Below are positions 6,443 through 22,978 of a DNA stretch of 64,000 nucleotides, piece by piece (within the stretch, counting starts at the first letter, position 1; each line of letters starts with the position of its first letter). The stretch is from a virus. The translations under genes and the position numbers were made by a program. The notes below the pieces were generated by a model, which was given only the letters and a program-made list of their open reading frames with translations, had not been told where the DNA came from and searched no databases. Location: the IMG/VR virus record IMGVR_UViG_3300025871_000005, positions 12,445-76,444 of that record, one strand, 5' to 3'.

Positions 6443-7022
6443 CTTTCAGCATAAAATTTGGATGATGTTGATGACATCTGGGTTCATACAGATCAGAACC
6501 ACCAACTTCAATTTCCTGATCTGATATGTTCTTTTTGTGAGTAAAGTGGGCATCTTCACCGCACACTGTGCAAACAGCTGTGCACTTTTCAATGTGTGTT
6601 GCCCACGGGAACATCTTTTCAATCTCTTTGAAAGGTTTACAACTTGATGACATGTCAAGTGATGACACAATGATATCAATTCCATTTCTGTACAGCCATA
6701 TCAATGCATCAGCAACATCTGGTATCATGAATGCTTCATCAACAGCAATTACATTTGGTTCAATTGAAGGATTTGATAGGTGTTCAAAAATGTCTTCACC
6801 AGTTTTTATTACAGTTGCAGGCCATTTGAAACCATTGTGTGTAACAACATCAGACGTTGAATACCGATCATCAATTGATGGTTTGTACACGACAATTGAT
6901 TTCTGTTGATATTTGCACTTTTCAAGTGCAGACATCAGATGGCTTGTTTTTGAACTAAACATTGGTCCAACAAACATTCTGAATGTATTATTTTTCATTC
7001 TTATCCTTTTTTGTTGAAACAA
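6435..7022 (-). CDS. tdk: Thymidine kinase
   Basis: GPMFSSKTS, KPSIDDRY, IAVDEAFM, CTVCG, YEPRCHQH. Confidence 0.92.
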   Translation of the reverse strand: MFQQKRIRMKNNTFRMFVGPMFSSKTSHLMSALEKCKYQQKSIVVYKPSIDDRYSTSDVVTHNGFKWPATVIKTGEDIFEHLSNPSIEPNVIAVDEAFMIPDVADALIWLYRNGIDIIVSSLDMSSSCKPFKEIEKMFPWATHIEKCTAVCTVCGEDAHFTHKKNISDQEIEVGGSDLYEPRCHQHHPNFMLKVD

Positions 7023-7539
7023 TTGTAAAAGGTTTTCTCACAGTTGAAATGTGTTTTTCAGAGATTGAAAGAGCTTTAATGAGCAAAATGACTGGATCTT
7101 TCACAGTTTCATACAACGCACACATTGCACCCAATGCAACATCTGATCCTGAACCAATTGATGTATACATTGATGTATCACTTAAAACACCAAAATCCTC
7201 TTCGATTGTGAACAACCTTCCTTTATACCCAACAATGATTGCGCCATGATTTTCACCAGATGCTTCATATTCATGTTGAGCATATATTCTCTTCAATGCA
7301 GGAATGAAATCACACACAAAGTATTCATTTGGATCATCTCTGTTATCTTCTGGTGGATCAAAACAGTATTGAAGAATTTGACCCATCCTGAATGATTGGC
7401 AAAATCCAAACAACATTTTTCCCTTCTTGAAAACTTTTGGGACAGTTATTGTTGATATTGCATCATTGATACCATTTGCTGATGCATCCCCAGCCAACCA
7501 AACATATTTTCCATCAGCATAACCAACTATACATGTCAT
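6988..7539 (-). CDS. HslV/proteasome-beta-like Ntn hydrolase
   Basis: N-terminal Thr (MTCIVG), AGD, PKVF, IGSG. Confidence 0.75.
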   Translation of the reverse strand: MTCIVGYADGKYVWLAGDASANGINDAISTITVPKVFKKGKMLFGFCQSFRMGQILQYCFDPPEDNRDDPNEYFVCDFIPALKRIYAQHEYEASGENHGAIIVGYKGRLFTIEEDFGVLSDTSMYTSIGSGSDVALGAMCALYETVKDPVILLIKALSISEKHISTVRKPFTIVSTKKDKNEK

Positions 7540-8510
7540 AAAGATTTCAAGCTCCTGTCAAACAACCCATTTTTCAGTTCTTGAATAATGTTTTCATTCA
7601 CAGATAATTTCTGAGCTTTGTGCATAAGCAATATTTGTATCATGTCATGCCAATATTCATGTTTTTCACTCTTTAACCAAGAATTGAAGCTGACAATATC
7701 AGCTTCTGATTTATAACGTTGAATAATCTGTTCTTCTTGAATCAATTGTTGAATTACATTATTTGTGATATTTGGCATTGCGTTCATAGGAATTGAACTA
7801 TATCCTGAATTTTTTGCAATTTTATCAAGCATTTCAAAATGCCTCTCATAAACATGGAGTGAATTGCTTATGTGCACATATGATCCCAATTCAACGCCAA
7901 GTTCATTTGCCAACATCTCTTGAAAGAATGTGAACGCAGGAACATCATATGATATTCCAAAAATGAGATCTGAACTTCTCATTGATACAATTTGGTGCAA
8001 TTTACCATCCCTAATGAAAAATTGCAACGTCAATGTGCATGGCACATCTTTCACAGCAAGCATACTGTCTTTTGGTGATCTTATATGAATAACAGCTCTC
8101 CTACTGTCAGGATCTCTCTTCAATTCATCAATAACATATTGCCATTGTGTCCAATCATGTTCAGCACCACAAATTCTGTCATGTGGTTTGAATATTCTTG
8201 AACCATAAGCACTGTTTGCAGTTACGCCATCGTCACTGATATTTGACCAAAACTGAGAATAGTTTGAAATCCATTCAGTTGAATTGTTTCCACTGATGTA
8301 CCAAAGAATTTCACCCATCATATATGATAATGAAAATTTTCGTTCTGGAATGAATAGCAGTCTATCTCTTGGATTTGTGATCACAAACTTGACGCCAAGA
8401 TGTTCTTTGATCTTCATTCCTCGCGGTTGACAAACATATTCTGGATTGTTTACCAATTTTGCCAATCCAGCAAATGCATCTGTGAATGATTTGTATGTGT
8501 GCTCTGTCAT
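7536..8510 (-). CDS. Thymidylate-synthase-family enzyme with dCMP-type Asp; probable dCMP hydroxymethylase or related C5-modifying enzyme
   Basis: GEILWYISG, DPDSRRAVI, DVPCTL (catalytic Cys), MRSSDLIFGISYD with Asp (7944-7946) where ThyA has Asn, SLHVYERH; start ATG 8510 after a GAGG RBS. Confidence 0.8.
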   Translation of the reverse strand: MTEHTYKSFTDAFAGLAKLVNNPEYVCQPRGMKIKEHLGVKFVITNPRDRLLFIPERKFSLSYMMGEILWYISGNNSTEWISNYSQFWSNISDDGVTANSAYGSRIFKPHDRICGAEHDWTQWQYVIDELKRDPDSRRAVIHIRSPKDSMLAVKDVPCTLTLQFFIRDGKLHQIVSMRSSDLIFGISYDVPAFTFFQEMLANELGVELGSYVHISNSLHVYERHFEMLDKIAKNSGYSSIPMNAMPNITNNVIQQLIQEEQIIQRYKSEADIVSFNSWLKSEKHEYWHDMIQILLMHKAQKLSVNENIIQELKNGLFDRSLKSL

Positions 8511-8557
8511 ATTTTCCTCAAACAGATTGTACAGAATGTCATCAAATTGTTCATATT

Positions 8558-9538
8558 TCAAATCGAAGACAACATTTTGATCTGTTCCCAATTTGTTGTG
8601 TACCAATCAATTGTCATATCAATTCCAGTTTTTACATCAACAATTGGCTCATACTTCAGATCATTTTTGATTTTTGATATGTTTGCAAGTGTATGTTTCA
8701 CATCACCCATCCTTGTTGGCGCCATGATCATACCCTTGTTTGGCAATCTCTGATTGATGAGCCACAAAATTTCATTATTGCTTATTCTTGTCCCAGTTGC
8801 AACGTTGTATACATCACCATTGAATATGTTGGCAGATTTCCCAGCAAGAATGAGCGCATGAACAACATTGTCAACATGACACATATCTCTGCTCTGTGTA
8901 CCATCTCCATCAAATCTCAATTTTTTTCCAAACTTTATTGCAGTCAACCATGCTGAAATTGCAGTTGAATATGGAGATCCACCCAACTGATTTTTGCCAA
9001 AAACATTGAAAAATCTCATTGATGCAATGTTGCATTTGTAATAGTTTGCATACATCACAGCATAATCTTCAATTATTGACTTTTGCAATGCATATGGTGA
9101 AACTGGGTGTTTTGTATCAGTTTCTGATTGTCCAAGAACTTTTCCATATTGATCAACTGTCGCTCCACCATAAACTGATGAACTTGATGCAAATATCAGT
9201 TTTGTTCTGTTACCAGCTTTTCTCAATGCTTCAAAAAGTTTCAATGTTTTTGTTACATTCACATCATTTGTTTCATATGGATACTCAACGCTGTATGAAA
9301 CTCTTGGCATTGCTGCAAGGTGAAAAATTGTGTCATAAACACCATGCTCAACATTGTCAACAATGTTTTTGTCAGAGAAATCATTTGCATACAATGTTCC
9401 CATTCCTGTTGGCACAAATTCTTTATGACCATTTGAAAAATCATCAACGCCATCAACGTTGAGACCAATCTTTATACATTCATTTGCAAGATTGCTACCA
9501 ATAAAACCAGCCACTCCAGTTATCAGAATATTTTTCAT
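8558..9538 (-). CDS. NAD-dependent NDP-sugar epimerase/dehydratase (extended SDR)
   Basis: GVAGFIG, HLAA, ASSSSVYG, YALQK, RFFNVFG, GDGTQSRD. Confidence 0.9.
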   Translation of the reverse strand: MKNILITGVAGFIGSNLANECIKIGLNVDGVDDFSNGHKEFVPTGMGTLYANDFSDKNIVDNVEHGVYDTIFHLAAMPRVSYSVEYPYETNDVNVTKTLKLFEALRKAGNRTKLIFASSSSVYGGATVDQYGKVLGQSETDTKHPVSPYALQKSIIEDYAVMYANYYKCNIASMRFFNVFGKNQLGGSPYSTAISAWLTAIKFGKKLRFDGDGTQSRDMCHVDNVVHALILAGKSANIFNGDVYNVATGTRISNNEILWLINQRLPNKGMIMAPTRMGDVKHTLANISKIKNDLKYEPIVDVKTGIDMTIDWYTTNWEQIKMLSSI

Positions 9539-9786
9539 ATTGCGTATATCTTTTCTAATGAACTTTCATCAATAAATTTGACACGTTTATCAAATGAATT
9601 TGTGCATTGTTGACTTCCGCTAAATGACCAGATATAGTAATCATCATCAAACTTTGTTATGATTACATTTTCATCCCTATGTATCAAATTATGCAATTCA
9701 AAATCACTATTCAATGGAATAAAATTTTCAGTATCCCATGCTTGTTGCTTTGATATGTTAACCTTTACCAACATTTCCATAACCAT
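9535..9786 (-). CDS. Hypothetical protein
   Basis: 83-aa ORF tiled in the operon. Confidence 0.4.
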   Translation of the reverse strand: MVMEMLVKVNISKQQAWDTENFIPLNSDFELHNLIHRDENVIITKFDDDYYIWSFSGSQQCTNSFDKRVKFIDESSLEKIYAI

Positions 9787-9955
9787 CTCTGTACCATCCA
9801 GAACCCTTCAGAATAAATCCTGATTGCTGATTGATTAATCTCTTCAATGAATTGTGTCCACATTTCTCACAGTGAATCAAGGGCTCTTCTGTTATCTTCT
9901 GTTCTGCCTCAAATTGAAGGCCACAATTTTTGCAAATATATTCATATGTCATCAT
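9758..9955 (-). CDS. FmdB-family zinc-ribbon protein
   Basis: YEYICKNCG...CEKCG...FILKGSGWYRDGY. Confidence 0.85.
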   Translation of the reverse strand: MMTYEYICKNCGLQFEAEQKITEEPLIHCEKCGHNSLKRLINQQSGFILKGSGWYRDGYGNVGKG

Positions 9956-10160
9956 TCACCTCTGGAAGCATTACGCCTTTGCAAAGTTTCACAAATTTTG
10001 ATTTTTCATCATCTGAAAGGTTGTGATTGTGACTCATGATGTCATGAATTAGGCATTCAATTGCACTATTCCACCATTCATTTGTCAACTTTTCAACACA
10101 ATCTTTACAAAATGATTCACCTGAAAGCAACTCTTTGTTGCATCTGCATGTGTGTGCCAT
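9942..10160 (-). CDS. Hypothetical Cys-rich protein
   Basis: CRCN...FCKDC; tiled in the operon. Confidence 0.45.
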   Translation of the reverse strand: MAHTCRCNKELLSGESFCKDCVEKLTNEWWNSAIECLIHDIMSHNHNLSDDEKSKFVKLCKGVMLPEVNDDI

Positions 10161-10175
10161 AACACAATTTACGTA

Positions 10176-11468
10176 TCACAATAGATCATATTTCTTCATG
10201 AACTGTTCTGTTGTATGTTCATATGAAGCATACTCTCTGACAAATTTTTGAAGTTTTGTCACATCAGGATTTGTATCAATCAGCCTTCCCAACACATCAC
10301 CAATGTCTGAAAGATCTGGTTTTCCTCTCAATTCATCTGGCCAATTGACTGCATCAAAATAGACCTTATATTCATACAGATTTGGGTAAAGTGGTATTGC
10401 ACCAAATTCAACAGCCTCAAGTGAGGCATATCCTCCATTTGTGTCAACAGTATAGAACGCACCAACAATATCACAATTTTGTGACAAAAACCTGTATTCA
10501 TCCCTATTCAGAGCAGTATCAACCAATTTGACATATGCCGGACACAATTCAGCAATTTCATCATTACTGATCTTCTGATTTGGATTTCCTGCCAAAATTA
10601 TGAAATCTTGTCGTGTCTTCCACAATTCTGGAACCAGTTCAAACAGAAACTTGCCACAATTTGTGTAATCGCTTGATCTTCCCAACCCGCCAACTCTGTT
10701 TGGCACCCAAACAATCTTTTTTCCAGATTTTCGCAATTGTTCAAATTGTTTCAAAAAGCGCACATTGTTGACATCAACCGGTTTTCTGATCTCCTCTGTT
10801 GAATAACCATCCTTCCAAACATCAGATTTTTTCATGATGTTCTCAACAATATGTTGTTGATAATCTTTGCCAAGATCATCAAAAAAGATCTGTTCCATTG
10901 TTTTGCAATGCCACAAACACACATCAGCTTTCAAATTTCCAACAACTTGACTATGCCAATATTCAACCTCTTTTGGAACGATTCTTGCTGTTGGGCTGTC
11001 AAGAAAGTGTGTTTGCACGATGAACATTGGTTGATAATGGTATTCAAGTTGAAACAACGTTTTAAGATTTCCTACAAACATTGGATCATTTACATACACA
11101 TGTGTGTATCTCTCACCAACATTGTCCCAATGCACAAAATCGAGAGCTTTTTTGTAACTTTCATATGGAAAATCATACCTTGTCCTGAGTGCAGAGGGTG
11201 CAATTGGAACACTCAACAGTTTAACACGTTTGAACAACTGCTGACCCAACAGTTTCCACAAAAGTTCAGCAGGTTTTTCACCCTCTGCACAATCTTTCAC
11301 ATCTGGAACAAGAATGTCAACATACAGTTCAGGATTCAACTTCAACATATTGAGCAATTTTGTTGCCATCATTTGCCAATTGCTGTCTGCTGTGAAAACA
11401 AATTTGCCCTGTTCATTGTACAGTGAAAGTTGAAGTTGCCAAAGAATCATTTTTTTCATAATTGTCAA
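10176..11468 (-). CDS. GT-B fold glycosyltransferase (candidate DNA glycosyltransferase)
   Basis: VWVPNR and GGYASLEAVEFGAIPLYPN resemble the GT-B donor-binding motif; no signal peptide or TM. Confidence 0.7.
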   Translation of the reverse strand: MTIMKKMILWQLQLSLYNEQGKFVFTADSNWQMMATKLLNMLKLNPELYVDILVPDVKDCAEGEKPAELLWKLLGQQLFKRVKLLSVPIAPSALRTRYDFPYESYKKALDFVHWDNVGERYTHVYVNDPMFVGNLKTLFQLEYHYQPMFIVQTHFLDSPTARIVPKEVEYWHSQVVGNLKADVCLWHCKTMEQIFFDDLGKDYQQHIVENIMKKSDVWKDGYSTEEIRKPVDVNNVRFLKQFEQLRKSGKKIVWVPNRVGGLGRSSDYTNCGKFLFELVPELWKTRQDFIILAGNPNQKISNDEIAELCPAYVKLVDTALNRDEYRFLSQNCDIVGAFYTVDTNGGYASLEAVEFGAIPLYPNLYEYKVYFDAVNWPDELRGKPDLSDIGDVLGRLIDTNPDVTKLQKFVREYASYEHTTEQFMKKYDLL

Positions 11469-11477
11469 TTCTCCGAT

Positions 11478-12041
11478 TCAGTCCAAAATATAACTTTGTG
11501 TTTCAGAGAGTGCCCACAATGGAAATACTTCCAACATCTTTTCTCTTATCTCCTGGAGCTCTCTCTCAATATTTTCGTCATCAACAAACAATTCCAACCA
11601 TTTGCATCCAGAAATCATTCTGAAGTCATCGTAATGTCTCTGAATACTGTTGAGACTGTTTTCGTCTATTGATTGATCAAGATCATCACGTATTCCACTG
11701 AATGACTTTCTTTTGCAATGAATGATCAATGTATCAAGTTTAGAATATCCCTCATCAAGTGCCATGATTGCATCGATGTCTGTTTCCCTATTGAAATGTT
11801 TTGAATATGCATATTCACAAGGAAATTCACGATCAAATATGACACTGCTGCCTGTCTGTCTAATGAAATCAAGCAAATATTGTGATGAAACCCTTATGTT
11901 TGTCAAGAATCTATCCTGACCATGCAGGAAGCTTCCATGTTCACTTGATGCCTTGAAAACAGGAATATTGAGAACTCTTGAAAGTTGATGGGCAATGTTT
12001 GTTTTACCACACATATCAGCGCCAACAAAAATTATGATCAT
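11478..12041 (-). CDS. dNMP kinase-like P-loop protein (candidate modified-dCMP kinase)
   Basis: GADMCGKT Walker A; VIFDR motif of the thymidylate kinase fold. Confidence 0.75.
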   Translation of the reverse strand: MIIIFVGADMCGKTNIAHQLSRVLNIPVFKASSEHGSFLHGQDRFLTNIRVSSQYLLDFIRQTGSSVIFDREFPCEYAYSKHFNRETDIDAIMALDEGYSKLDTLIIHCKRKSFSGIRDDLDQSIDENSLNSIQRHYDDFRMISGCKWLELFVDDENIERELQEIREKMLEVFPLWALSETQSYILD

Positions 12042-12045
12042 TGTG

Positions 12046-12483
12046 TCACCATACTACAATTTTACGTCCTGATTTTACAATCCTATTTGCAACATTTTTT
12101 GCGATTGAGATCACATGGTCAAATCTTCCAGTTTTGTCAACTGATTCATTTTCAACATTTGTTTCAAACGTGATTGGAATTGGAACTGGATTTCCTTGCA
12201 GTCTGATACACTGATTTAACACATCAATCTGTGTGCATAAACGTTTCATGAGTTCTGTCTTTGCGCTGTTCAGAACATCAATGATACAATTTTCTGGATC
12301 ACTGTTTGACATTCTGAATTCAATACACTTGTGTTCAACATCTGTCAACTCTGCTATCCAAACGGTATCCTTGTAAAACTGCAAGCAGATCTCAATCTTG
12401 GCGTCACTGTACATGTACATTCCATCACCCAAATGCGTGAAAACCAAACCTGCAAATTCTGTTGTTTCTTGTGTGTTGTTCAC
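12046..12483 (-). CDS. Hypothetical protein
   Basis: 145-aa ORF tiled in the operon. Confidence 0.5.
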   Translation of the reverse strand: MNNTQETTEFAGLVFTHLGDGMYMYSDAKIEICLQFYKDTVWIAELTDVEHKCIEFRMSNSDPENCIIDVLNSAKTELMKRLCTQIDVLNQCIRLQGNPVPIPITFETNVENESVDKTGRFDHVISIAKNVANRIVKSGRKIVVW

Positions 12484-13794
12484 TTATTCACCCAATGTTT
12501 TCAATTTCCAACTTGTTGTTGATGCACCAAAATCATTCTTTTCAACCTCTGCTATGCACAATGTCAAATTCTTGATCACGTTCTTATCACTCTTCCAACC
12601 CCAAATGTTCATGCGTTCAATTTTTGATTTTGAACCCATGACTTCAGCACTCAGGAATTCTTTTCCAGTCTTTGTCCTTTTCAGATTTGAACCATTGACA
12701 ACAAACCAAACGACCTCCTTCTCACCCTGCTCAAGTTCATCAACAGATTTGATGCCTTTTGTTTCAAGTGTACCCCAGATTTCATCATCAATGATCATTC
12801 TTACATCAACTGTCCCAAGAATTTCTGCTTGAAAATCTGCCAATTCACGTTTTGTCCATTCACCCGGCAACTCTTCTGCATCATACTTTTGTGCATACTC
12901 ATCAATGAGTCGCAAAAAATTGTTGTAACCCTGATACTGATCACGTTTTGAAACCTTTTTGATTTCATCCTTGTGCACAATCATAACATCATGCATATGT
13001 TTGTATGATCTGAACAGCTTTCCTGAGCCAACAACATCCAATGAACCGAATGCTCCCAACTTAATGAGTGCATCAAGTGCTTTTGAGTTGAATTTTGATG
13101 GTCGCCAACTTCCATCAGCATTCCAAAACATATCTTTGAAATCAGTGATTGGACGCATTGACAACAATTCTTCAACTGCACTCTCACCAACTCCCTTACA
13201 TGATAGGAGTGATGGCATGAATTTTTTTCCTTCAATGCATGTCCAACCTTTTCCTGCATATTGCACATCAATTGGAACAATCTTGTAACCAAGTTTTCTG
13301 ATTTCACCAATTGCTGTTGCTTTATCATCAGGATTGTTTGACATGCTCTCAAGATAGGTTGTCAACCATTCCTTTTCATAGTGTGTCAGTAGCCATGCAC
13401 ACATATATGAATCAATTGCATAAGCGATTGCATGGCTTTTGTTGAACCCGTATGAAGAATAGAACAATATATTCTGATATGCTTGTCGTGCTGTCTCTTC
13501 TTTGATACCCTGACTGACAGCACCATCAACAAATTGATCTTCCATTTTCTTTGCTTCTGCTATGGCAGCCTCACCCTTTGAAAGATCACGTTTCATAATT
13601 GCTCTACGAACGTTATCACATTGGTCTTTGGGGAAAAGCCCAATGATTTCGGCCAATTCCATGACTGACTCTTGGAAAATTAAACAATTATGTGCGAGAA
13701 TTCCATTTGCAATGAAATTATGATTCCCAGTTTGAATATCATATGTCACATCTTTATTGATGTGTTTTATAGATTTCACTTTAGTGTAAATCAT
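12484..13794 (-). CDS. dnaE: DNA polymerase III alpha fragment 4 (split-intein C part plus fingers/HhH/OB)
   Basis: 36-aa IntC ending ILAHN, then CLIFQESVM, YGFNKSHAIAY, KGVGE. Confidence 0.9.
   Translation of the reverse strand: MIYTKVKSIKHINKDVTYDIQTGNHNFIANGILAHNCLIFQESVMELAEIIGLFPKDQCDNVRRAIMKRDLSKGEAAIAEAKKMEDQFVDGAVSQGIKEETARQAYQNILFYSSYGFNKSHAIAYAIDSYMCAWLLTHYEKEWLTTYLESMSNNPDDKATAIGEIRKLGYKIVPIDVQYAGKGWTCIEGKKFMPSLLSCKGVGESAVEELLSMRPITDFKDMFWNADGSWRPSKFNSKALDALIKLGAFGSLDVVGSGKLFRSYKHMHDVMIVHKDEIKKVSKRDQYQGYNNFLRLIDEYAQKYDAEELPGEWTKRELADFQAEILGTVDVRMIIDDEIWGTLETKGIKSVDELEQGEKEVVWFVVNGSNLKRTKTGKEFLSAEVMGSKSKIERMNIWGWKSDKNVIKNLTLCIAEVEKNDFGASTTSWKLKTLGE
13687..13794 (-). mobile_element. 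Split intein 2, C-fragment
   Basis: KVKSI...VTYDIQTGNHNFIANGILAHN followed by Cys+1. Confidence 0.9.
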
Positions 13795-14771
13795 ATTGGT
13801 AAAACTCTTAATTCATTTGGATATATGTCCATTTTTGATGCCCATACTCTTTGTAAATCGTAACCTTCTTTTATGGCTCGTTTTGTATGTGATATATCAA
13901 TATTGAATTGTTGTTTCATTTTATCTGTTAATTCAAAACATTCTTTGTTTCCATGCCAATAATCACCATCAAATTCAATGATTAGATTTAGACTTTTGAC
14001 ATAAAAGTCATATTCATGACCACTTTCTTGTAGTTTGAACTTGTGTACAACGTTATCTTGACCATAAAAATCACACAATATTTTATAGAATTGCAATTCT
14101 TGATTTGATGTTGTTTGAGGTGCAGAACGATATTTTACACCTTCTTTAACTGATAAACAATGCTGCCTATATTTTTCTTCGTCATGTAATTGATAATGTG
14201 CAAGAAAATTTCGATTTCTTTTGAAAACTTTACCACAAATTTCACACGTAACATTTCGTTGTTCTTGATCAGCACTACAATATGATTTATGAGACCTTAA
14301 AGAAAGATTTGTTTCAAATTTTTTGTGACATTTTTCACATTCAAAATCACCAAATTTCACAATATTTTCACGTTTTTTACCTAAATTTTGATTTGCTTTC
14401 CATTCAGGCGTTATTGTTCTTCCTTTGTACAAAATTGATCTTAATTCATAAGCACATTTTTTCGAACAACATTTACGTGATTTTCTACTATTTGAAACAA
14501 TAAATGTCTTATTGCACATTTGACATATTATTTCAGTTCGCGCTTCTTTCCATTCAATTGTTTCTTTTTTGCTTTTAAGATAAAGAGACTTACAATATTT
14601 TGAACAAGTTTTTACACGTTCACATCTTGTTTCACAACCGCAAATAACACATACACCCTTTTTTAATGTTCTAGAATGCGCATCTTTACAAGCTCTTGAA
14701 CAATATTTTGAATCAATTTTTTTTGAAAGATATTCTATATTACAATGTACACATCGTTTACTAAATTTCAT
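13791..14771 (-). CDS. Free-standing homing endonuclease, Vsr/DUF559-like (EDxHD type), with Cys-repeat and C2H2 Zn fingers
   Basis: Repeats CxxC...CSxxC; SNQE...YDFYV...IIEFDGDYWHG...D; lies between IntN2 and IntC2. Confidence 0.8.
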   Translation of the reverse strand: MKFSKRCVHCNIEYLSKKIDSKYCSRACKDAHSRTLKKGVCVICGCETRCERVKTCSKYCKSLYLKSKKETIEWKEARTEIICQMCNKTFIVSNSRKSRKCCSKKCAYELRSILYKGRTITPEWKANQNLGKKRENIVKFGDFECEKCHKKFETNLSLRSHKSYCSADQEQRNVTCEICGKVFKRNRNFLAHYQLHDEEKYRQHCLSVKEGVKYRSAPQTTSNQELQFYKILCDFYGQDNVVHKFKLQESGHEYDFYVKSLNLIIEFDGDYWHGNKECFELTDKMKQQFNIDISHTKRAIKEGYDLQRVWASKMDIYPNELRVLPI

Positions 14772-15045
14772 AACTCACAATCTCATCATCTTCCATTAAA
14801 TCACCAGCACATACCCAACCTCTCTTTGTCATAATTTTATGTTCTGGTGTGCATTTTAATGTCCCTGTTTCAGTTTCTATCATAATGAGATCTTGAGTTC
14901 CATTACAAACTTTTGCCTTAACAATGTCTTGCTCATAGTGTTGAGTTTTTTCATTGAATGATATGATCTCATCACCAATTTCTATATCACTTAAACTTTT
15001 TTGTTGCAAATTTGCCAATAGAATTAGTGTATCACCTGTGAGACA
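14761..15045 (-). mobile_element. Split intein 2, N-fragment (94 aa)
   Basis: Block A CLTGDTLI; block B CTPEH. Confidence 0.9.
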
Positions 15046-15393
15046 ATTATATGTTTCTCCCAACACTTTTTCAAAGAGTGGATGCCCCCATTCAAACTTT
15101 TCACCCTTCTTTGCCTTGAGATAGATCTTGTCAACATTTGCAGCCAAGGGTCCAGGTCTATAGATTGCTGTCAACACAGCAATGTCAACAATTGACTTTG
15201 GCTCTGCTTGTCTGAACAGTCTCTGCGCACCCTTTGATGTCAACTGAAATATCCCAGGGAATGCTTCACCTTTGTAGACATCAAATGTTTTCTGATCATC
15301 ATAATTGTTTGCATCAGGATGAAGATTCTGTTCATACCACTTCTTGATATCAAGAAATTCTGGTTGTTCTGTTGTAATATTTCTTATTTTCAT
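14761..15393 (-). CDS. dnaE: DNA polymerase III alpha fragment 3 plus split-intein N part
   Basis: GIFQLTS, AIYRPGPL, GETYN then CLTGDT...CTPEHKIMTKRGW. Confidence 0.9.
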   Translation of the reverse strand: MKIRNITTEQPEFLDIKKWYEQNLHPDANNYDDQKTFDVYKGEAFPGIFQLTSKGAQRLFRQAEPKSIVDIAVLTAIYRPGPLAANVDKIYLKAKKGEKFEWGHPLFEKVLGETYNCLTGDTLILLANLQQKSLSDIEIGDEIISFNEKTQHYEQDIVKAKVCNGTQDLIMIETETGTLKCTPEHKIMTKRGWVCAGDLMEDDEIVSYEI

Positions 15394-15655
15394 CCAATAT
15401 CACCCTTTTGAAATCATCATAGTTGAGTGTTTCCAAATCTGGAAATCTTGTCATCTTTTCTGGTTTGGTATAAAAATTGGGTGCCCATATGTCATCACCC
15501 AATCTGTCACTGACATACACAAACACAAGCCAACCACCATCACAATAAACTCTTAAACCAATCCATTTTTTGTCAACATAGTCTGTTGTTCGAATAACAG
15601 AATTCCACATTTCCATCAACTGTTCACTATTGAATTTATTTGAATTTCCAATCAT
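15350..15655 (-). CDS. Hypothetical protein (island inside dnaE)
   Basis: 101-aa ORF overlapping the fragment 3 start. Confidence 0.5.
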   Translation of the reverse strand: MIGNSNKFNSEQLMEMWNSVIRTTDYVDKKWIGLRVYCDGGWLVFVYVSDRLGDDIWAPNFYTKPEKMTRFPDLETLNYDDFKRVILDENKKYYNRTTRIS

Positions 15656-15881
15656 TGAAAACTTTCATCAATTGTTCAACGTTTTTGCACTCACTCATTT
15701 CAACAAAAAATTGATGATTATATTTGAATAACCAATGATTTAGAATGTGAATTCTTGAATATGACATCAGAATTCTACTGTCGTCATACATTTTCGGAAT
15801 TTCCGGAAAAAATACAACTTTATGATCTCCCCAAACAAAACTGCCATAACCAGCTCTGTGCACCTTCAATTTGAGATTCAC
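15636..15881 (-). CDS. Hypothetical protein (island inside dnaE)
   Basis: 81-aa ORF with ATGA overlap. Confidence 0.5.
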   Translation of the reverse strand: MNLKLKVHRAGYGSFVWGDHKVVFFPEIPKMYDDSRILMSYSRIHILNHWLFKYNHQFFVEMSECKNVEQLMKVFNDWKFK

Positions 15882-16138
15882 AATAAGCCAAATCTTTCCC
15901 TGAATTCATCAGTGTTCAGACTGCACAATCTTGTCATAGTTTCCCAATCCCACAATGTCATGACATCAGTGCTCAGATCGTTAACCAAAAAGCCATCATG
16001 ATCAGAAATTGTTCTGTTAACAATTCGTGGATTCCACAGCAGAACACAATTTCCTGAATACATAAATGCCCAAAGTCCAGTTTTGTACACTTTGAGTGTG
16101 TCAATTTTGGATGACAACAAAATTTCAACTGTGTTCAT
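15878..16138 (-). CDS. Hypothetical protein (island inside dnaE)
   Basis: 86-aa tiled ORF. Confidence 0.5.
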   Translation of the reverse strand: MNTVEILLSSKIDTLKVYKTGLWAFMYSGNCVLLWNPRIVNRTISDHDGFLVNDLSTDVMTLWDWETMTRLCSLNTDEFRERFGLL

Positions 16139-16274
16139 TCAATAAACCAATAATGATTTTCATAATTCTTGGGCGCTTTTTTGATATCATCTTGACTGTG
16201 TGCTCTTCACACTGTGTGAGATCATTTCCTGATATGGATCCAATGTTGTCTCTGTATATTCTCAACGTTAACAT
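16125..16274 (-). CDS. Possible 49-aa hypothetical protein
   Basis: Manual translation MLTLRIYRDNIG...LNEHS fills the gap between neighbours. Confidence 0.3.
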   Translation of the reverse strand: MLTLRIYRDNIGSISGNDLTQCEEHTVKMISKKRPRIMKIIIGLLNEHS

Positions 16275-16277
16275 AAT

Positions 16278-16532
16278 TCATTCCTGTTCACAATCATCTG
16301 GAAGTTTTACCAACATCATTCTCACAAGTTCAATCTTTTCATCCACAACCTTCAACACTGCAATTGCAGATCGCAATCTCTTCTCTAAATCATCTGTTGA
16401 CAATTTCAGCTCACCATTCTGTGCAGATATCTCTGACAACTGTTCAATTGTGTACCTGATCAAACCTGATATATCTGTTGGTCTCAATGAGTTCATGCTC
16501 TGATTATAAAACCCAACTGTGACAGTATTCAC
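16278..16532 (-). CDS. Hypothetical coiled-coil protein
   Basis: 84-aa ORF. Confidence 0.45.
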   Translation of the reverse strand: MNTVTVGFYNQSMNSLRPTDISGLIRYTIEQLSEISAQNGELKLSTDDLEKRLRSAIAVLKVVDEKIELVRMMLVKLPDDCEQE

Positions 16533-16556
16533 ATATACTTACAATTAAGTTTTAGT

Positions 16557-17699
16557 ATGCAATATTTCAAAAGTGACAAAGAGATTGGTAAACTTTTCAA
16601 AGAATATATGACTGATTTTTTGTATTTGACTGAAATTTTGAACGAAGAATACGCTGATAAATTCAGGGAATTTGATAATGAAATCAAAACAATAATAATC
16701 ATTTACAACAACGTCAGTAGTGGTAAAGGATTGTCAACAATTGACAGATCTAAAAAGAGATACAATTTTTACAAACAATTGCTAAATTTGTCTGATGAAC
16801 AGGCAGAAGCATACAAAGAGTTCAATCTTAGTGGTCGACTCGATCAAAAACAGATCACTGTGCTCAAACCTGTGTTCACAAAATTGTTTGATATGCTATC
16901 TGGAAAAGATCCAAAAGGTTTGGCTCATGAATTGTATAACACTGTGTTTCATGATGAATTCATAAAGGCTGAAAAACAGAAACAAAAATTCTTGAAAAAG
17001 AGCAGCAAGAACAGTGGGGGTCGTCTTGATCTGATTGCTTTTGGCAGTGAAAGAAATCTGCCAGAATTGGATAACAAATTTGAGCAACGGCTGCACACTG
17101 CAATCAGCAGTCATCTTGATCATGCTGGTATGCAAATTCAGTATGTCACTGCAATCAGGAACATCCTGAAACAGGGACTGTATGATGATGTGTTCACACG
17201 ACCAAATGTTCAAAAAGTTTACAGGGGAATGGGCGTCAAATATGAATGGTTGAAGGCTGCTATTGGTGCCAAGAAGGGTGAGGTTGCAATCAAGGATGGA
17301 CACATTGAAAAACGTTTCACATGGCACCCAAAAAAGAATGCAGGAAGTTGGACTAAGAGTCTGAGAACAGCAAAACGTTTTGCCAATGAAAACAGTAATA
17401 TGAAAAGTGGAACGGTTCCCATTGTAATGGTTGCCTACACTGATGAGAACAGTGATGATGTTTTCCTTGATGCAAGATTGTGGTACAAAAACATCAGTGA
17501 TGAATATTCAAATGAGCGTGAAGTGATATCACTCAGTGATATCAAGGTTGGTGAAATCATGTGGTTTGATGCAGACCCAGAGAACTCTGGGATTTATCCA
17601 TGGGAACAGGATAAAAAGCAAAAAATTGTTGATAAACTTGCCAATATTCCAAAACAATCATTCAGCAAAGTGTTGAAAAAACATGCAGGGAAGAAATGA
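16557..17699 (+). CDS. ADP-ribosyltransferase-like protein (R-S-ExE), paralog 1, with N-terminal helical extension
   Basis: LDLIAFG, VYRGM, GSWT, NEREV; TACTTA upstream. Confidence 0.7.
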   Translation: MQYFKSDKEIGKLFKEYMTDFLYLTEILNEEYADKFREFDNEIKTIIIIYNNVSSGKGLSTIDRSKKRYNFYKQLLNLSDEQAEAYKEFNLSGRLDQKQITVLKPVFTKLFDMLSGKDPKGLAHELYNTVFHDEFIKAEKQKQKFLKKSSKNSGGRLDLIAFGSERNLPELDNKFEQRLHTAISSHLDHAGMQIQYVTAIRNILKQGLYDDVFTRPNVQKVYRGMGVKYEWLKAAIGAKKGEVAIKDGHIEKRFTWHPKKNAGSWTKSLRTAKRFANENSNMKSGTVPIVMVAYTDENSDDVFLDARLWYKNISDEYSNEREVISLSDIKVGEIMWFDADPENSGIYPWEQDKKQKIVDKLANIPKQSFSKVLKKHAGKK

Positions 17700-17703
17700 T
17701 CAT

Positions 17704-17940
17704 TCATGGAAGATTGTGAACAATATTCAGTATTGAACTGAATTGATACTGATCAAACCTGTAAAAGAGCACACAAACATTGTATGGTTCACAACTCAAT
17801 CTTGAAATGAATTTCAATCCATTCTGTTCAACTGACGCATTCATATCATAATATGACATCTGCTTTGTTACTGACCTGTTGTGAGATATGTAACCCTTCT
17901 TTTCAAGTTCATTCTCAACAATTTTTTGTATTGTTAACAT
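17704..17940 (-). CDS. Hypothetical protein (island inside dnaE)
   Basis: 78-aa ORF. Confidence 0.45.
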   Translation of the reverse strand: MLTIQKIVENELEKKGYISHNRSVTKQMSYYDMNASVEQNGLKFISRLSCEPYNVCVLFYRFDQYQFSSILNIVHNLP

Positions 17941-18169
17941 CGCGCTTCAACCTATTCAACACTGTTCTGTAATCATTGATGATGAATTGTGTATGTTTCA
18001 TTCCTGTCAACGTACGTGTATCATATACGTCCATATGCCAAACATGATCAACAACATCTTCATAGATTTCTTTCAATAAAAAATCATGATGGCCATTCTC
18101 AAAACGTTGATTGTATTGAAACTTTAACGTACCTTTACGATACACAATCATTTTTATTGTTATCATCAT
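17915..18169 (-). CDS. Hypothetical protein (island inside dnaE)
   Basis: 84-aa ORF; ATGA overlap with the fragment 2 stop. Confidence 0.45.
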   Translation of the reverse strand: MMITIKMIVYRKGTLKFQYNQRFENGHHDFLLKEIYEDVVDHVWHMDVYDTRTLTGMKHTQFIINDYRTVLNRLKRDVNNTKNC

Positions 18170-19020
18170 GGCGTCAAGATTTCATCATCATCCTTCAATT
18201 CATTAGCAAACACTTCACCTCTTTGTGTCATAACCAATTGATCTGGTAGCAATCTCATCACTGTACCATCCTCAAGTTCAATCTGTTTGATGCCTCCTTT
18301 ACCCTTTATGACCTTTTCAACTGTATTTTCAATTAGTCTCATTGTTTCAAGACCTAACAGGTCATATTTAATGATTCCATTTGGTTCAAGCGTTTTTCCA
18401 CCAACACCTTCGACCCAAGGCGTTTGAGGTTCACCACCATTTGTAATGAGAGGCATTTCTCCCATTGCATCATCCATAATGACAACACCTCCAGCATGCC
18501 GACCCAATGATCTCTGCTCTTTAAAGAGAATTTCCATACTCTCTGCAACCTCAGGATGCCTCTCAATAAAACTTCTGAAACTTTCTGAATACTTCATTGC
18601 ATCCTCAAATTTGAGAACAAAAAGGTTTTTATCATCACCATGTTTCATGGTTGCCTTTCTGACCTCCTTTTCAACAGTTTTTGTTGCCTCATTTGCTTCT
18701 TCAAATGGAATTCCATAAAACTTTGAAATATCTTTCAGGAGCGTTTTCACTTTGAACGTGTTGATATTTGAAATTGGAATAACATTGTTCATTCCAAACT
18801 TTTCTCTCAATACTTCAAGAACTTTATCACGATCACTGATGTCGCAATCTATGTCTGGTGCACCTGAATTATGTGTCAAATACCAATCAGAATTTCCTTG
18901 TTTACAAAAAAATGTATGATCGACGTCAACAGTAATATCATACAAAATTTGTTCTTCATCATATTCACACAATTCAACGCTTGTAATTATGTTGTTTGAC
19001 AAGATATTTTGTTGCTCCAT
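18166..19020 (-). CDS. dnaE: DNA polymerase III alpha fragment 2 (IntC, catalytic palm, degenerate Hint tail)
   Basis: YLTHN then SGAPDIDCD (catalytic Asps), GRHAGGVVI, KYDLLGL; likely start ATG 19020. Confidence 0.9.
   Translation of the reverse strand: MEQQNILSNNIITSVELCEYDEEQILYDITVDVDHTFFCKQGNSDWYLTHNSGAPDIDCDISDRDKVLEVLREKFGMNNVIPISNINTFKVKTLLKDISKFYGIPFEEANEATKTVEKEVRKATMKHGDDKNLFVLKFEDAMKYSESFRSFIERHPEVAESMEILFKEQRSLGRHAGGVVIMDDAMGEMPLITNGGEPQTPWVEGVGGKTLEPNGIIKYDLLGLETMRLIENTVEKVIKGKGGIKQIELEDGTVMRLLPDQLVMTQRGEVFANELKDDDEILTP
18868..19020 (-). mobile_element. Split intein 1, C-fragment (51 aa)
   Basis: ITSVE...LYDITVDVDHTFF...LTHN followed by Ser+1. Confidence 0.88.
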
Positions 19021-19903
19021 AATTTCTATTTTCAATATTTGGTATAACACTATACAAATTCTTTTCTTTAAGAAAAGAATAAAAATCATTCATATAAATA
19101 ACTTTAATGTTAACATGTTGTTCATCAATTACACGTTGTCTAACATCAGAATTTGAGTTGATCAATAATGAAAAATTATTTGACTCAGATTTTCTTACGC
19201 CTTTCAATTCAATATAACAATTCAACTCATTATTCCAAAAATCAGGCGTATAATGTCTTATTTGATTATCAACCAATATCTCAAATGTTTTTGGTTCATA
19301 TTCATAAGCAATATTTGAATATTGCAAATATCTTGCATAATCAGCTTCAAACGCAGATTTGAAATAATGATTACCCTTTATATCAATTCTGTATCCACTT
19401 CTTCCATTGACATGAATATGAATTTTTCCATTTGATTGTGCTATCATTTGACAATTTCTAGAACAAAAACGCTTTCGTTCATAAGCTGACTTTTTGATTT
19501 GAAATGTCTTATTACAAATTTCACATTGTTTTTCCAATGATGTTCTCTTAGAAAGAGATGAACATTGCGGAGAACAATATTTTCTATTACAAGAAATGTT
19601 TACATCAAAATTTTTCCCGCAATGTTCACATTTTAAGCTTTTTTTATCACTTGACAATCGTTGTGATTGATTGATATTTTTACATTCTTTTGAACAAACC
19701 TTTCTAGCTGATTGTGATTTGTAAACTCGCACCTCTTTTCCACAAATGATACATTGTTTAACAATCTTTTCACCATTTTCAGGACGCCTATTCCATGCAT
19801 TTTTACATTTTGAACCACAAAAACGTCGTTTTTGAATTGAGTAATTTTTGTTTGTATCATCAATGATAAAATCACAATTACAATTTACACATTTTCTAAT
19901 CAT
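18974..19903 (-). CDS. Free-standing PD-(D/E)xK homing endonuclease with Cys repeats
   Basis: Repeats CxxC...CSxxC; YEYEPKTF...YTPDF...YIELKG; lies between IntN1 and IntC1. Confidence 0.78.
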   Translation of the reverse strand: MIRKCVNCNCDFIIDDTNKNYSIQKRRFCGSKCKNAWNRRPENGEKIVKQCIICGKEVRVYKSQSARKVCSKECKNINQSQRLSSDKKSLKCEHCGKNFDVNISCNRKYCSPQCSSLSKRTSLEKQCEICNKTFQIKKSAYERKRFCSRNCQMIAQSNGKIHIHVNGRSGYRIDIKGNHYFKSAFEADYARYLQYSNIAYEYEPKTFEILVDNQIRHYTPDFWNNELNCYIELKGVRKSESNNFSLLINSNSDVRQRVIDEQHVNIKVIYMNDFYSFLKEKNLYSVIPNIENRNYGATKYLVKQHNYKR

Positions 19904-20171
19904 TAGCTATTATCTGATCATCTTTACATAAGTGTTCAGCCTCAACTAATTCAAATTTTCCATTACGAATAATTGGCCAACGATGTTTTCTAGAACAAAC
20001 AATAGTTTGTCCATTCACAATGAACTTAACATACTGCAATGTTTTTGTTTCAAATTTGTCAAGAATTTTTCTTGTTTCTCCACTTCCACCAATAATTTCA
20101 TCCCCAATATTAAGTTCTGAAATTGATTTATTGCCAATTGGTGTTCGAACTAATGTTTCACCTGGTAAACA
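19896..20171 (-). mobile_element. Split intein 1, N-fragment (91 aa)
   Basis: Block A CLPGETLV; block B CSRKHRW. Confidence 0.88.
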
Positions 20172-21719
20172 TCTATGAGGATTCAGGAACCTCTCGAATG
20201 AAAGATTATACTTTAAAGGGTCAATGTCTGTGATTTCCAATAGATAAACAACCAATGAACCGCCAGATGAACCTCTTGCGACCCCAAGAAGACATACATC
20301 CCTTGCCAATCTGAGTGCTCCTGCCAATGTGACAAAGTATGAAGCGTTGTCAAGCTTCTTGATGATGCTCAACTCATACTTCATCCTCTCAACATATTCA
20401 GGCTTTTTATCCAAACCTTTTTTGATCATTCCATCCTTTACAAGTTTGCACAAATATTTGAATTCCGTTGTATCACTGGGTACAACCGATTTTGGATATT
20501 TGTATCCCTGATCAAATTTGATATCTTCAATTACATTGTGAGCAATATCATGTGTCCTCTCAATTGCATCACACACCAACTGTTCAACACCATCTTCTCT
20601 GTAAAACTTGTGCTGATCTTGGCGTTGTTTGAAACCTTCCCACATCTGCTCTGCATTCTTTGGATACAGGAGTGCTTTCACATCCTCAACAGACTTTGGC
20701 AAGCTTTCAGGTCCCAATTCACTATAATTCATGAACCCAAGTTTTTTGTACATCTCTCTATGACGCCACAGATCAGGTCTTGGATAATGACTGTCACACG
20801 TTGCAATCAACTGTTCAGTCATTCCATTCCTTTTTGCAAATTCAATGATTGCTCTGTTGACAACATCCTGAGCAGGAATTTTGTGAAATTGCAATTCAAG
20901 AAGAAAATTTTTCACACCAACTGCACTGATGAGTGGATCAGCTATGTTCCCAATCTCATTCAGAACTCTGCGCATGATGTTTTCGTCATCAAGAATTTCA
21001 GGATTGAGATCATCAAAATTGACAGTTCTCAATGTTTGCAACACAGCATATGATATTGGACCCCCAAGACATGCAGATGACAGAATGATGTCATCCTTTG
21101 CCTCCTTCAGGATCATCCCCAAATCAATTCTGGGAAATCTGTAGAACCCTTCTATATAACCCCTGGAAACAATGTGAAATATTTTCTTGAGGGCACCTGA
21201 TGTCTTTGGGAGCACAACAAGATGATGGCGACGATTGAGAGGATTGAAGGCCTTTATATTTCGCGTTTCATCCTCATTCTCAATTGTCAATGCATTTGAC
21301 ATTTCAATATCAACAATGTCGTCGTCATCATCTGTCTTCACACTGATGTTCTTGAGACCTTCTTCACGTTTTTTCAGTTTCTTCTGAAGCTTTTTATCCT
21401 CTTTTGCTTCCTCATACAGAGCCCTGTCTTGAGCCCACTGTTCAAGACTTGGGTGATAGTATGCCTCAACTCCTGGAATGTATTTGAACTGTGTTCCTGC
21501 TTTTTTCCACTTCTGATTGAAGAGATATGCTTGTGCAAAACTGTTCATATGACCATGTTCAGTGATTGCCATCCCATCAAGTCCATTGCTCAATGCAAAT
21601 TTGAAATGATCTTCTGCAGGACCCATACCATCATAGGTTGAAGCTCCTGTGTGACTATGAAGTCCAAAAAACTTCTTTGGCACCAGAGTGCTGTTCCTTT
21701 CATCAATATGATTTGTCAC
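19896..21719 (-). CDS. dnaE: DNA polymerase III alpha fragment 1 (PHP domain) plus split-intein N part
   Basis: LHSHT, ITEHG, GVEAY, DSHY, GVARGSSGGSLVVYLL, FERFLNPHR then CLPGET. Confidence 0.92.
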   Translation of the reverse strand: MTNHIDERNSTLVPKKFFGLHSHTGASTYDGMGPAEDHFKFALSNGLDGMAITEHGHMNSFAQAYLFNQKWKKAGTQFKYIPGVEAYYHPSLEQWAQDRALYEEAKEDKKLQKKLKKREEGLKNISVKTDDDDDIVDIEMSNALTIENEDETRNIKAFNPLNRRHHLVVLPKTSGALKKIFHIVSRGYIEGFYRFPRIDLGMILKEAKDDIILSSACLGGPISYAVLQTLRTVNFDDLNPEILDDENIMRRVLNEIGNIADPLISAVGVKNFLLELQFHKIPAQDVVNRAIIEFAKRNGMTEQLIATCDSHYPRPDLWRHREMYKKLGFMNYSELGPESLPKSVEDVKALLYPKNAEQMWEGFKQRQDQHKFYREDGVEQLVCDAIERTHDIAHNVIEDIKFDQGYKYPKSVVPSDTTEFKYLCKLVKDGMIKKGLDKKPEYVERMKYELSIIKKLDNASYFVTLAGALRLARDVCLLGVARGSSGGSLVVYLLEITDIDPLKYNLSFERFLNPHRCLPGETLVRTPIGNKSISELNIGDEIIGGSGETRKILDKFETKTLQYVKFIVNGQTIVCSRKHRWPIIRNGKFELVEAEHLCKDDQIIAND

Positions 21720-21730
21720 AATGTTTCTTT

Positions 21731-22033
21731 CTAAATTTGACTATGCAAATAGCTCAAAATATCGTTAATGTTTATCTTTGTCAAGATTGCATTGGGTATA
21801 TGACCCCACAATACTATTGAATTCTTGTTCAATACACCCCTAATTCCTGGGAATTTTATGTATTGTTCAATACTGCGTTCACCTGGTATCATCCAAACAC
21901 AAATTGGTGGTGTACGTGAACCATGATAGTGTATTTTTACATGTCCTTTCGCACTACCACATTTATTGACAGTTATCGACTTTTCCACCGTGAAAGTGTT
22001 CATTAACAGTTTTCTCCAACAAATGCTCATCAA
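21731..22033 (-). CDS. Hypothetical protein
   Basis: About 100-aa tiled ORF. Confidence 0.4.
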   Translation of the reverse strand: MMSICWRKLLMNTFTVEKSITVNKCGSAKGHVKIHYHGSRTPPICVWMIPGERSIEQYIKFPGIRGVLNKNSIVLWGHIPNAILTKININDILSYLHSQI

Positions 22034-22529
22034 AATTTGTGATGGTGTTCAACAGAATTGGCTTGTATTCGGTCATCTCAACTGACACACATGTGTGTGC
22101 ACAAGTCAATTTGACACTTTGATCATACCCATTATTGTGTATATGTCCATGAACAATGTGCACATTGTTTGCAAACTTTTCACTCATTCTCTGAGGATAG
22201 TGTCTCAACAGAAGATTTCCACACACCAACCGTTTTGTGTATACAATTCCACAATATTCAAGAAAATGTTTTTTGTCATGATTACCCAACAACACAATCA
22301 GTTTTCCATTCAGGGTGTTGATGAACTGTTTCATTTCATCAAATTTGCTGTTTGGAACAAGAGCAAGATCACCCAAGTGAATAACTGTATCATCCTCACC
22401 AATTGCACTGTTCCAATTCATTCTCATAACACTATTCATTTGGAATGAATTCACAAATGGTCTATTGCAATATTTGATGATGTTTGCATGAGAAAAATGT
22501 GTATCAGAAATTACCCAAATATTTTTCAT
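21963..22529 (-). CDS. Calcineurin-like metallophosphoesterase
   Basis: SDTHFSH, HLGD, LGNHD, HYP, HGHIH. Confidence 0.9.
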   Translation of the reverse strand: MKNIWVISDTHFSHANIIKYCNRPFVNSFQMNSVMRMNWNSAIGEDDTVIHLGDLALVPNSKFDEMKQFINTLNGKLIVLLGNHDKKHFLEYCGIVYTKRLVCGNLLLRHYPQRMSEKFANNVHIVHGHIHNNGYDQSVKLTCAHTCVSVEMTEYKPILLNTITNFDEHLLEKTVNEHFHGGKVDNCQ

Positions 22530-22978
22530 ACATCAATCAATCCAATCTCATATGTTCCACGTTGCACAAATTTCGCATCACACTTTTTATAGAACTGTTT
22601 TGCATTTTCATTCCATGGATCAACAACAATCTGTTTGTAACCCAAACATTTTGCAACAGTCTTCACTTCATCAACAACTGATTTACCAATACCCCTAAAT
22701 CTGTCACTTCCAGGAACAAAAACAGAGAGATCACATGGGCGCATCATATCATTTTGTGTTCCAAACCAAACACCAACACCCAAAATCTTTTCATTTTCAC
22801 CAATGACTGTAATGTATGATGTTACATTTTGCAAAAAAGTCCTATCAAGATGCGAATAATAGATTTCTTCTCTCACAACATCCCTAATCCAACTTTTTCC
22901 ACTGAGCGTGAATTGTTCAACAATCAGCTTCTTCAATTCATCATCAATGAATTCAATTTCCTGAGTTAGTGTATGCAA
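22526..22978 (-). CDS. GNAT-family acetyltransferase
   Basis: RFRGIGKSVV acetyl-CoA motif; NENAKQFYKKC. Confidence 0.75.
   Translation of the reverse strand: MHTLTQEIEFIDDELKKLIVEQFTLSGKSWIRDVVREEIYYSHLDRTFLQNVTSYITVIGENEKILGVGVWFGTQNDMMRPCDLSVFVPGSDRFRGIGKSVVDEVKTVAKCLGYKQIVVDPWNENAKQFYKKCDAKFVQRGTYEIGLIDV

Follow-up and report, generated by a model that had tools for sequence, protein, structure and literature searches.

In the 64,000-nucleotide stretch of viral DNA analyzed here (positions 12,445 to 76,444 of IMG/VR virus record IMGVR_UViG_3300025871_000005, hereafter the window), the gene for the replicative polymerase DnaE was divided into four open reading frames (ORFs), all on the minus strand, and two of the three breaks were occupied by true split inteins (Table 1). 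The third break, between fragments 2 and 3, was bordered by a C-terminal tail on fragment 2 and a short N-terminal strand on fragment 3, and sequence comparison gave good support to the view that the tail is derived from an intein (Hint) domain and has lost splicing. We consider it probable, with real room for doubt, that this dead half-intein module docks two DnaE chains to each other and moves as a mobile element. The window belongs to a 269.5 kb virus record of a jumbo phage, approximately 74% complete by CheckV.

The tail of 43 residues that an earlier note had pointed out at the end of fragment 2 was present, and its Hint-derived part comprised approximately 41 residues (IKQIELEDG ... DDDEILTP). 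This part contained a long strand, a block B hairpin with LPDQ in place of TxxH, and an N4-like DDDEI. On the other side of the break, an in-frame TGA was located 9 nucleotides upstream of the ATG of fragment 3 and a Shine-Dalgarno-like GGGTG preceded the ATG, which indicated that MKIRNI represents the real start of fragment 3. In two viral contigs (L001 and L002) with DnaEs of 74–76% identity, the protein was contiguous at this site and led from "...LILxRKxG" straight to "xxPTFxDVxxWY". Because neither addition was found in these contiguous proteins, the approximately 41 tail residues and MKIRNITT were regarded as insertions at the break. The extra C-terminal and N-terminal tails were also missing from the contiguous DnaEs of about 45 further clusters.

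By manual alignment, the earlier note had matched the tail to the second half of IntN2, the N-terminal half of intein 2, at about 16 of 42 positions. This resemblance was borne out by local alignment, in which 17 of 37 residues were identical with one 1-residue gap, and the BLOSUM62 local score of 79 was reached by none of 20000 shuffled sequences (maximum 57). When the whole 269.5 kb genome was searched in six frames, the tail matched IntN2 with an E-value of 1.9e-5. Comparison of 54 related tails, described below, with 18 genuine N-inteins of the same gene family by hhalign gave a probability of 97.1% and an E-value of 6.9e-11, and the tail spanned columns 48–100 of the 112 N-intein columns. 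When the tail profile was compared with all PDB sequences, the top match was the NrdJ-1 split intein (E-value 4.9e-6, residues 63–108), followed by a Hint-like VWA-associated domain, a DnaE intein (E-value 0.004, residues 57–85), Sonic hedgehog, and Npu DnaE structures. A search of 1.84 billion protein representatives with the same profile gave 1796 matches at E-values of 0.001 or lower, among which genuine N-inteins reached 1e-21; inspection of approximately 18 of them showed five DnaE tails, and almost all of the rest were genuine N-inteins of fractured phage genes. The 50-position profile matched many genuine N-inteins in two separate stretches, perhaps because of the pseudo-two-fold symmetry of the Hint fold. 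The N-terminal strands of fragment 3 and of its relatives resembled the first strand of C-inteins at these same loci (KIKSI, KVKSI, MKIVAKK, and MARLVSVK), as had been noticed earlier for MKIRNI, and were too short for statistics. With the tail alone as the query, no Hint family was detected in Pfam at E-values up to 10, the query being too short, and a word-based search returned only the window's own protein. A recent duplication of IntN2 was considered as the origin of the tail and rejected, given that the two DNA sequences were only about 71% identical over 55 nucleotides and that the tail is shared with distant relatives.

All canonical splicing residues were missing from the module, in agreement with the earlier statement that fragments 2 and 3 cannot be spliced. 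Since the alignment started at N-intein column 48, the first 47 or so residues of the fold, including block A and Cys1, were missing from the tail. In the window, there was neither a Cys/Ser nucleophile before the tail, nor an HN with a subsequent C/S/T after MKIRNI. The LPDQ of the tail occupied the position of TPEH in IntN2, and this loss, like that of Cys1, had been reported in the earlier note and extended to the 54 related clusters: the block B columns held T in only 1 of the 54 tails and H in none, and in the 18 true N-inteins the H was invariant and the T nearly so. No column in the alignment of the 54 tails was invariant or at least 90% conserved, which indicated that the tails have no conserved nucleophile. 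On the C-side, fragment 3 and 16 relatives passed from a strand of 8–13 residues directly to the extein (xPTF/xEF...), without blocks F and G (the last 25 or so residues), HN, or a conserved C/S/T; true C-inteins of the same loci contain ...HNF... and end in HN before a C. Both true inteins of the window keep Cys1, the block B His, HN, and the +1 nucleophile. The absence of Cys1, of TxxH, and of HN with a +1 nucleophile excluded canonical splicing at the break between fragments 2 and 3. We also rejected a split intein in three pieces, as the N-extein is joined directly to the middle of the fold and there is no nucleophile at position 1.

Related tails were found in many DnaEs. Among the best 120 relatives of one N-fragment, 54 protein clusters ended in a tail of 41–74 residues (median 49, including 3 linker residues) and approximately 45 clusters were contiguous and had no tail. 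A common pattern was seen in the 54 tails, in which hydrophobic residues alternate with acidic ones and a D/N-G turn then leads to a second strand, after which come a G and a DD(I/V) motif. A query with fragment 3 gave no related loci in viral contigs; in metagenomic proteins, more than 12 sequences began exactly at the break site, with N-termini such as MKIKKI, MKIKSISK, MAKVKSI, and MARILSK followed by the extein, and at least 15 partner fragments were found to begin there with strands of the MKIKxI/MAKVKSI type. The upstream partners in L006 and L008 ended in homologous tails. As judged from these alignments, the tail and strand appear to be a conserved module across a clade of phage DnaEs, not a one-off relic. 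The earlier description of a dead intein fragment was therefore right as to its Hint origin and catalytic death, but not as to its isolation, because the module is conserved in 54 clusters.

The earlier note had also suggested looking for relatives in which the segment is a contiguous internal insertion, and the module was indeed found within a single chain in two relatives, P0047 and P0040, both of which translate by table 11. In P0047, present in contigs of two samples, the tail ran directly to KKIIDIK and then to the extein. In P0040, the former start (MARIESI) was still visible behind a 19-residue linker. P0040 is an ORF of 1172 residues (L012, 6001–9519) that contains the N-fragment, the module, the linker, the start of the C-fragment, an N-intein, and a Vsr-like endonuclease in frame, with both the module break and the boundary between intein and endonuclease read through. 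At another dnaE site, after GYGFNK, L001 carried a split intein (6498–11673) that started with Ser and had Ser at +1, and a 413-residue endonuclease-like ORF was located between its halves.

Two contigs, L013 and L014, were colinear with positions 10001–22539 of the window at 92–99% DNA identity. They lacked precisely the intein-1 element (approximately 18868–20171) and the intein-2 element (approximately 13687–15045), each including its endonuclease gene, and kept an identical tail, MKIRNITT, and a similar cassette between the two. In this sister phage, DnaE therefore consisted of two proteins of 742 and 516 residues, which would have to function together without a covalent link. Because the sister contig has only this break, the break between fragments 2 and 3 is probably older than the two true inteins, and their precise absence points to a recent invasion (or loss). 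The cassette of L013 contained an extra ORF of 321 residues on the opposite strand beside its homologue of the ADP-ribosyltransferase-like gene of the window, and a river contig (X4) had extra DNA of the same size (approximately 975 nucleotides) at the same point (approximately window position 17694–17706). The sister contig provides a natural intein-plus/intein-minus pair of dnaE genes for studying invasion by inteins and endonucleases.

The content of the break differed among relatives. L006, L008, and L015 contained a Vsr-like endonuclease gene of 534–607 residues, and the copies of L006 and L008 were 32% identical to each other. A GIY-YIG/NUMOD1 endonuclease gene was found in L016, a single ORF of 77 residues in L017, and 112 nucleotides only in the contig of P0034. 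In the window and the sister contig, the break held small ORFs and the ADP-ribosyltransferase-like gene, without an endonuclease match. In a quick tree based on the 300 residues that precede the site (54 split, 2 fused, and 21 module-less sequences), the presence of the module changed at least 15 times, and at least 7 changes were forced by well-supported branches alone. Module-bearing and module-less sequences formed sister pairs (P0036 with P0043, and P0091 with P0093), and the sisters P0060 and P0061 carried different tail subtypes. Repeated homing would explain this patchy distribution, and so would repeated precise loss via recombination with module-less alleles; a quick tree cannot separate the two. 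From its patchiness on the DnaE tree and the endonuclease genes in the break of relatives, the module appears to behave as part of a mobile element. The term "domesticated" remnant, used in the earlier note, became doubtful for the same module, which is patchy on the tree and usually surrounds a homing endonuclease gene.

The function that we hold most likely for the module, at somewhat better than even confidence, is non-covalent docking through the retained strands. In fractured genes, the two longest antiparallel strands of the split inteins are oppositely charged, and the natural split sites lie between the N4 and C2 motifs (Dassa et al. 2009, PMC2677866). The structure paper on gp41-1 describes two pseudo-symmetric units and a charge zipper between the long late N-intein strand and the first C-intein strand (bioRxiv 10.1101/546465); there the zipper is linked to a "capture and collapse" model, with citation of work on Npu DnaE. 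By the hhalign alignment, the tail of fragment 2 starts at the long zipper strand and ends after N4, and its partner starts with the first C-intein strand. The tail strand, counted as the nine residues ending at the turn, was net negative in 46 of the 54 clusters (mean –1.8), and the N-termini of the partners were net positive in 15 of 17 and neutral in two (mean +2.5, with the free N-terminus counted as +1). Docking was proposed because of this homology to the zipper strands together with the conserved charge pattern.

In the docking model, the break between fragments 2 and 3 is bordered by a truncated, catalytically dead split intein reduced to the central part of the Hint fold: approximately 41 residues remain on the N-side (long strand, block B hairpin, and N4) and approximately 8–13 on the C-side (first C-intein strand). 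In true split inteins, association of the fragments begins with the pairing of these two strands. The retained strands would likewise pair in antiparallel orientation as an oppositely charged zipper and dock the two polymerase chains; we infer that the tail is needed for this docking. In the genome of the window, true trans-splicing at intein 1 and at intein 2 would first complete each chain, after which DnaE would work as a non-covalent heterodimer, corresponding to chains of 742 and 516 residues in the sister phage. Like other mobile elements, the module would be acquired, dropped, or swapped among phages, in most cases together with a free-standing homing endonuclease gene located between the two halves, and would thus act as a gene-fracturing element carrying its own reassembly device. 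Whether it represents a new class of mobile element, a "half-intein" cassette (Hint tail, homing endonuclease gene, Hint strand) that homes to one dnaE site, does not splice, and clamps the two chains by a capture zipper, we regard as evenly balanced.

A complex prediction with the end of fragment 2 (73 residues, 56-row alignment) and the start of fragment 3 (116 residues, 17-row alignment) gave a score of 0.31, the mark being 0.32, and counts neither for nor against binding. Several other observations weigh against docking or against the mobility of the module. The AlphaFold2 models obtained for the fused form were poor overall, with a mean predicted local distance difference test (pLDDT) score of 59 for P0047:694–773 and 71 for P0047:660–797; the tail was predicted as four strands and a short helix (pLDDT 72–86), and the KKIIDIK strand appeared as low-confidence coil, so that its pairing was unplaced. 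The C-side strand had almost no alignment depth in these folds, because MAFFT misplaced the short N-termini of the partners (MKIKxI strands) and opened the 50-column insertion gap incorrectly. Foldseek gave no significant match in PDB, all E-values being above 0.3, and approximately 20 of the top 22 matches were inteins. The identity among tails was about 30–40% regardless of the identity of the polymerase core, which indicates fast evolution. The ORFs between fragments 2 and 3 in the window had no family match and included no recognizable homing endonuclease. In NrdA-a/NrdA-b of Aeromonas phage Aeh1, the tails arrived with mobE, are oppositely charged, and are essential for activity, and yet they are dispensable for formation of the heterodimer and needed only for higher assembly (Crona et al. 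2011, PMC3045599). In the same way, a large interface of their own might bring the DnaE halves together.

Such an interface is central to the best of the other explanations, which we judge unlikely but worth weighing: the tail and strand may be role-less leftovers of a decayed split intein, with the chains meeting via the native interface of palm and finger. The fast divergence of the tail, the lack of a confident predicted contact, and the formation of the Aeh1 heterodimer without tails are all in line with a neutral relic. However, a useless C-terminal extension is expected to be truncated often, and the tail in all 54 clusters is 41 residues or longer and has the same hydrophobic/acidic pattern, with none cut short. 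Charge polarity was also kept on both partners, and the module was retained when the two genes were fused again.

Another role for the module is less likely still, whether in higher-order assembly of the polymerase, in binding another replisome partner, as an aid to folding of the chains, or in disrupting the target site of the endonuclease and thereby protecting the host allele. The tails of Aeh1 serve in assembly of a dimer of heterodimers instead of in formation of the heterodimer, and the DnaE module travels with endonuclease genes, both of which could be accommodated by such a role. What the module retains, however, are exactly the two strands through which the halves of real split inteins pair, with opposite charges that match, and no result pointed to another partner.

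Covalent joining of fragments 2 and 3, by non-canonical protein splicing or at the level of RNA or translation, is very improbable. Nothing positive suggested it, and the idea arises only from the intein-like patchy distribution. Neither junction had a conserved nucleophile, Asn, or His, and the module lacks half of the Hint fold. A search with Rfam at E-values up to 1 over positions 14700–19200 gave three chance-level matches only and no intron RNA family. In L015, the 7 kb that follow the N-fragment downstream contained no gene with a DNA_pol3_finger match. Contigs from DNA and RNA libraries contained no joint of 18166 to 15393, which is weak evidence as contigs cannot prove absence; one RNA-library contig was colinear through the start of fragment 3, and the RNA-library contigs cover only parts of the locus and cannot prove transcription. 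Because of the 2.77 kb gap with seven ORFs, one of them on the opposite strand, the layout of L015, and the lack of an intron family, joining by RNA or the ribosome is implausible. The four pieces look like decay at first sight, but a merely broken gene in a phage that relies on a different polymerase is scarcely credible: all of the pieces are intact ORFs with polymerase motifs, both true inteins keep their catalytic residues, the two-piece form is common to many diverged phages, and the same dnaE arrangement was seen in DNA contigs of two other studies.

The non-splicing module with its docking role can be compared with several known systems. In fractured genes, split intein halves flank a free-standing homing endonuclease gene of the Vsr-like or GIY-YIG type, and phage DnaE is among the genes affected (Dassa et al. 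2009, PMC2677866). The module resembles them in having an N-piece with a Hint-derived end, an endonuclease gene of the same two families (in relatives), and a C-piece with a Hint-derived start, as well as in its phage DnaE host gene, the split between N4 and C2, and the opposite charges of the strands. It differs in having lost blocks A, F, and G and in having a degenerate block B, so that the five catalytic residues of the split inteins in fractured genes are not present, no splicing takes place, and two chains stay; furthermore, the break in the window has no recognizable endonuclease gene.

In Aeh1 NrdA, as at the DnaE break, an essential phage gene is split and its products carry oppositely charged extra tails that are absent from contiguous homologues. 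A mobile endonuclease splits the Aeh1 gene, and function is restored without RNA or protein splicing; Crona et al. (PMC3045599) speculated that the tails are possible remnants of a degenerate split intein. The DnaE module has statistically solid intein homology and a large recurrent family, unlike the Aeh1 tails, for which intein homology was not demonstrated. On the other hand, the function of the Aeh1 tails was shown biochemically, whereas that of the DnaE module is proposed from sequence.

As in the charge zipper of split inteins, the module keeps the N-intein strand, the first C-intein strand, and a globular part beside the split site, and its polarity (N negative, C positive) is that of the cyanobacterial DnaE inteins. 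Unlike true split inteins, it has no pre-folded N-terminal lobe for the collapse, and no chemistry follows. In the cyanobacterial split DnaE intein (Ssp/Npu), DnaE is also encoded by two genes whose products meet via Hint-derived ends, and the Npu and other DnaE intein structures were weak but top-ranking matches of the tail profile; that intein, however, occupies a different insertion site, is fully active in trans-splicing, and has no endonuclease gene between its halves. Tail-like extensions were also noted for T4 topoisomerase gp39/gp60, split by mobA, and for other endonuclease-split T4-like genes (PMC3045599). Like gp39/gp60, which assemble non-covalently after a split by a free-standing endonuclease, the two DnaE chains would assemble without a covalent bond. 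No described Hint-derived, non-splicing split module was found in the literature searched, the coverage of which was incomplete.

The coordinates of the locus are given in Table 1. DNA nearly identical to it was found in metagenomes of activated sludge, wastewater, a river, and groundwater. A megablast search of the 9.2 kb locus against INPHARED phages gave no match, and tblastn against the same collection gave only the DnaEs of Streptomyces phages with about 30% identity. A scan of the gap between fragments 2 and 3 for promoters and terminators gave nothing above shuffled sequences. The plus-strand ORF in the gap contained YRG..., SWT, and ExE-like motifs and had no Pfam or PHROG match; the motifs suggest an ADP-ribosyltransferase. 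The ORF at 15350–15655 (101 residues) overlapped the first 44 nucleotides of fragment 3 out of frame, and the same out-of-frame overlap was present in the sister contig (L013, 6566–6847 vs 6804). Elsewhere in the window, the large subunit of ribonucleotide reductase (30467–33634, minus strand, 1055 residues) contained a contiguous mini-intein, with an Intein_splicing match at residues 302–485, and more Hint matches were located outside the window at about 237.6–240.8 kb of the genome, which is therefore rich in inteins.

Table 1. Features of the dnaE locus in the window.
Feature	Position	Strand	Description
DnaE fragment 1	19896–21719	–	PHP domain and start of palm, then IntN1 from 20171
Free-standing zinc-finger endonuclease gene	18974–19903	–	Between IntN1 and IntC1
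DnaE fragment 2	18166–19089	–	Likely start at 19020 (MEQQ); IntC1 (to 18868), palm from SGAPDID on, tail
C-terminal tail of fragment 2	18169–18297 (stop 18166–18168)	–	43 residues; the first 2 or so (GG) still align with the extein
Cassette between fragments 2 and 3	15394–18165		2.77 kb; seven ORFs, six on the minus strand and one on the plus strand
Six small ORFs in the fragment 2/3 gap	15350–15655, 15636–15881, 15878–16138, 16278–16532, 17704–17940, 17915–18169	–	
ADP-ribosyltransferase-like gene	16557–17699	+	380 residues; sole plus-strand gene of the region, in the fragment 2/3 gap
DnaE fragment 3	14761–15393	–	Strand, first part of finger domain, IntN2 from 15045 (CLTGDTL, TPEH)
Start strand of fragment 3	15370–15393	–	First 8 codons, MKIRNITT; basic; extra relative to contiguous DnaE
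Free-standing zinc-finger endonuclease gene	13791–14771	–	Between IntN2 and IntC2
DnaE fragment 4	12484–13794	–	IntC2 (ends in AHN, +1 Cys), remaining finger domain, HhH, C-terminal domains

An intein in an essential gene is regarded as trapped, as loss of splicing should kill the host protein. The locus described here suggests a route of escape, in which an intein loses its catalytic lobes but keeps the association strands, which would leave a working replicative polymerase of two chains. It provides sequence-level evidence for a path that was only speculated on by Crona et al. for Aeh1 NrdA. The layout of fractured genes and the precedent of the Aeh1 tails were known already; the conservation, age, and apparent mobility of the module are new here. 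We know of no Hint homology for the tails of T4-like genes split by endonucleases, and a Hint ancestry is possible for the tails on other endonuclease-split phage genes. If the proposed reading is true, the module would supply the missing link from split inteins to the tails, so far unexplained, of phage genes fragmented by endonucleases, and would be a natural intein reduced to a pure device for protein–protein docking. If docking in particular is true, the pair of approximately 41 and 10 residues, held non-covalently by a charge zipper, would offer protein engineers a small heterodimerization tag, and the natural variants in the 54 clusters might yield orthogonal pairs.

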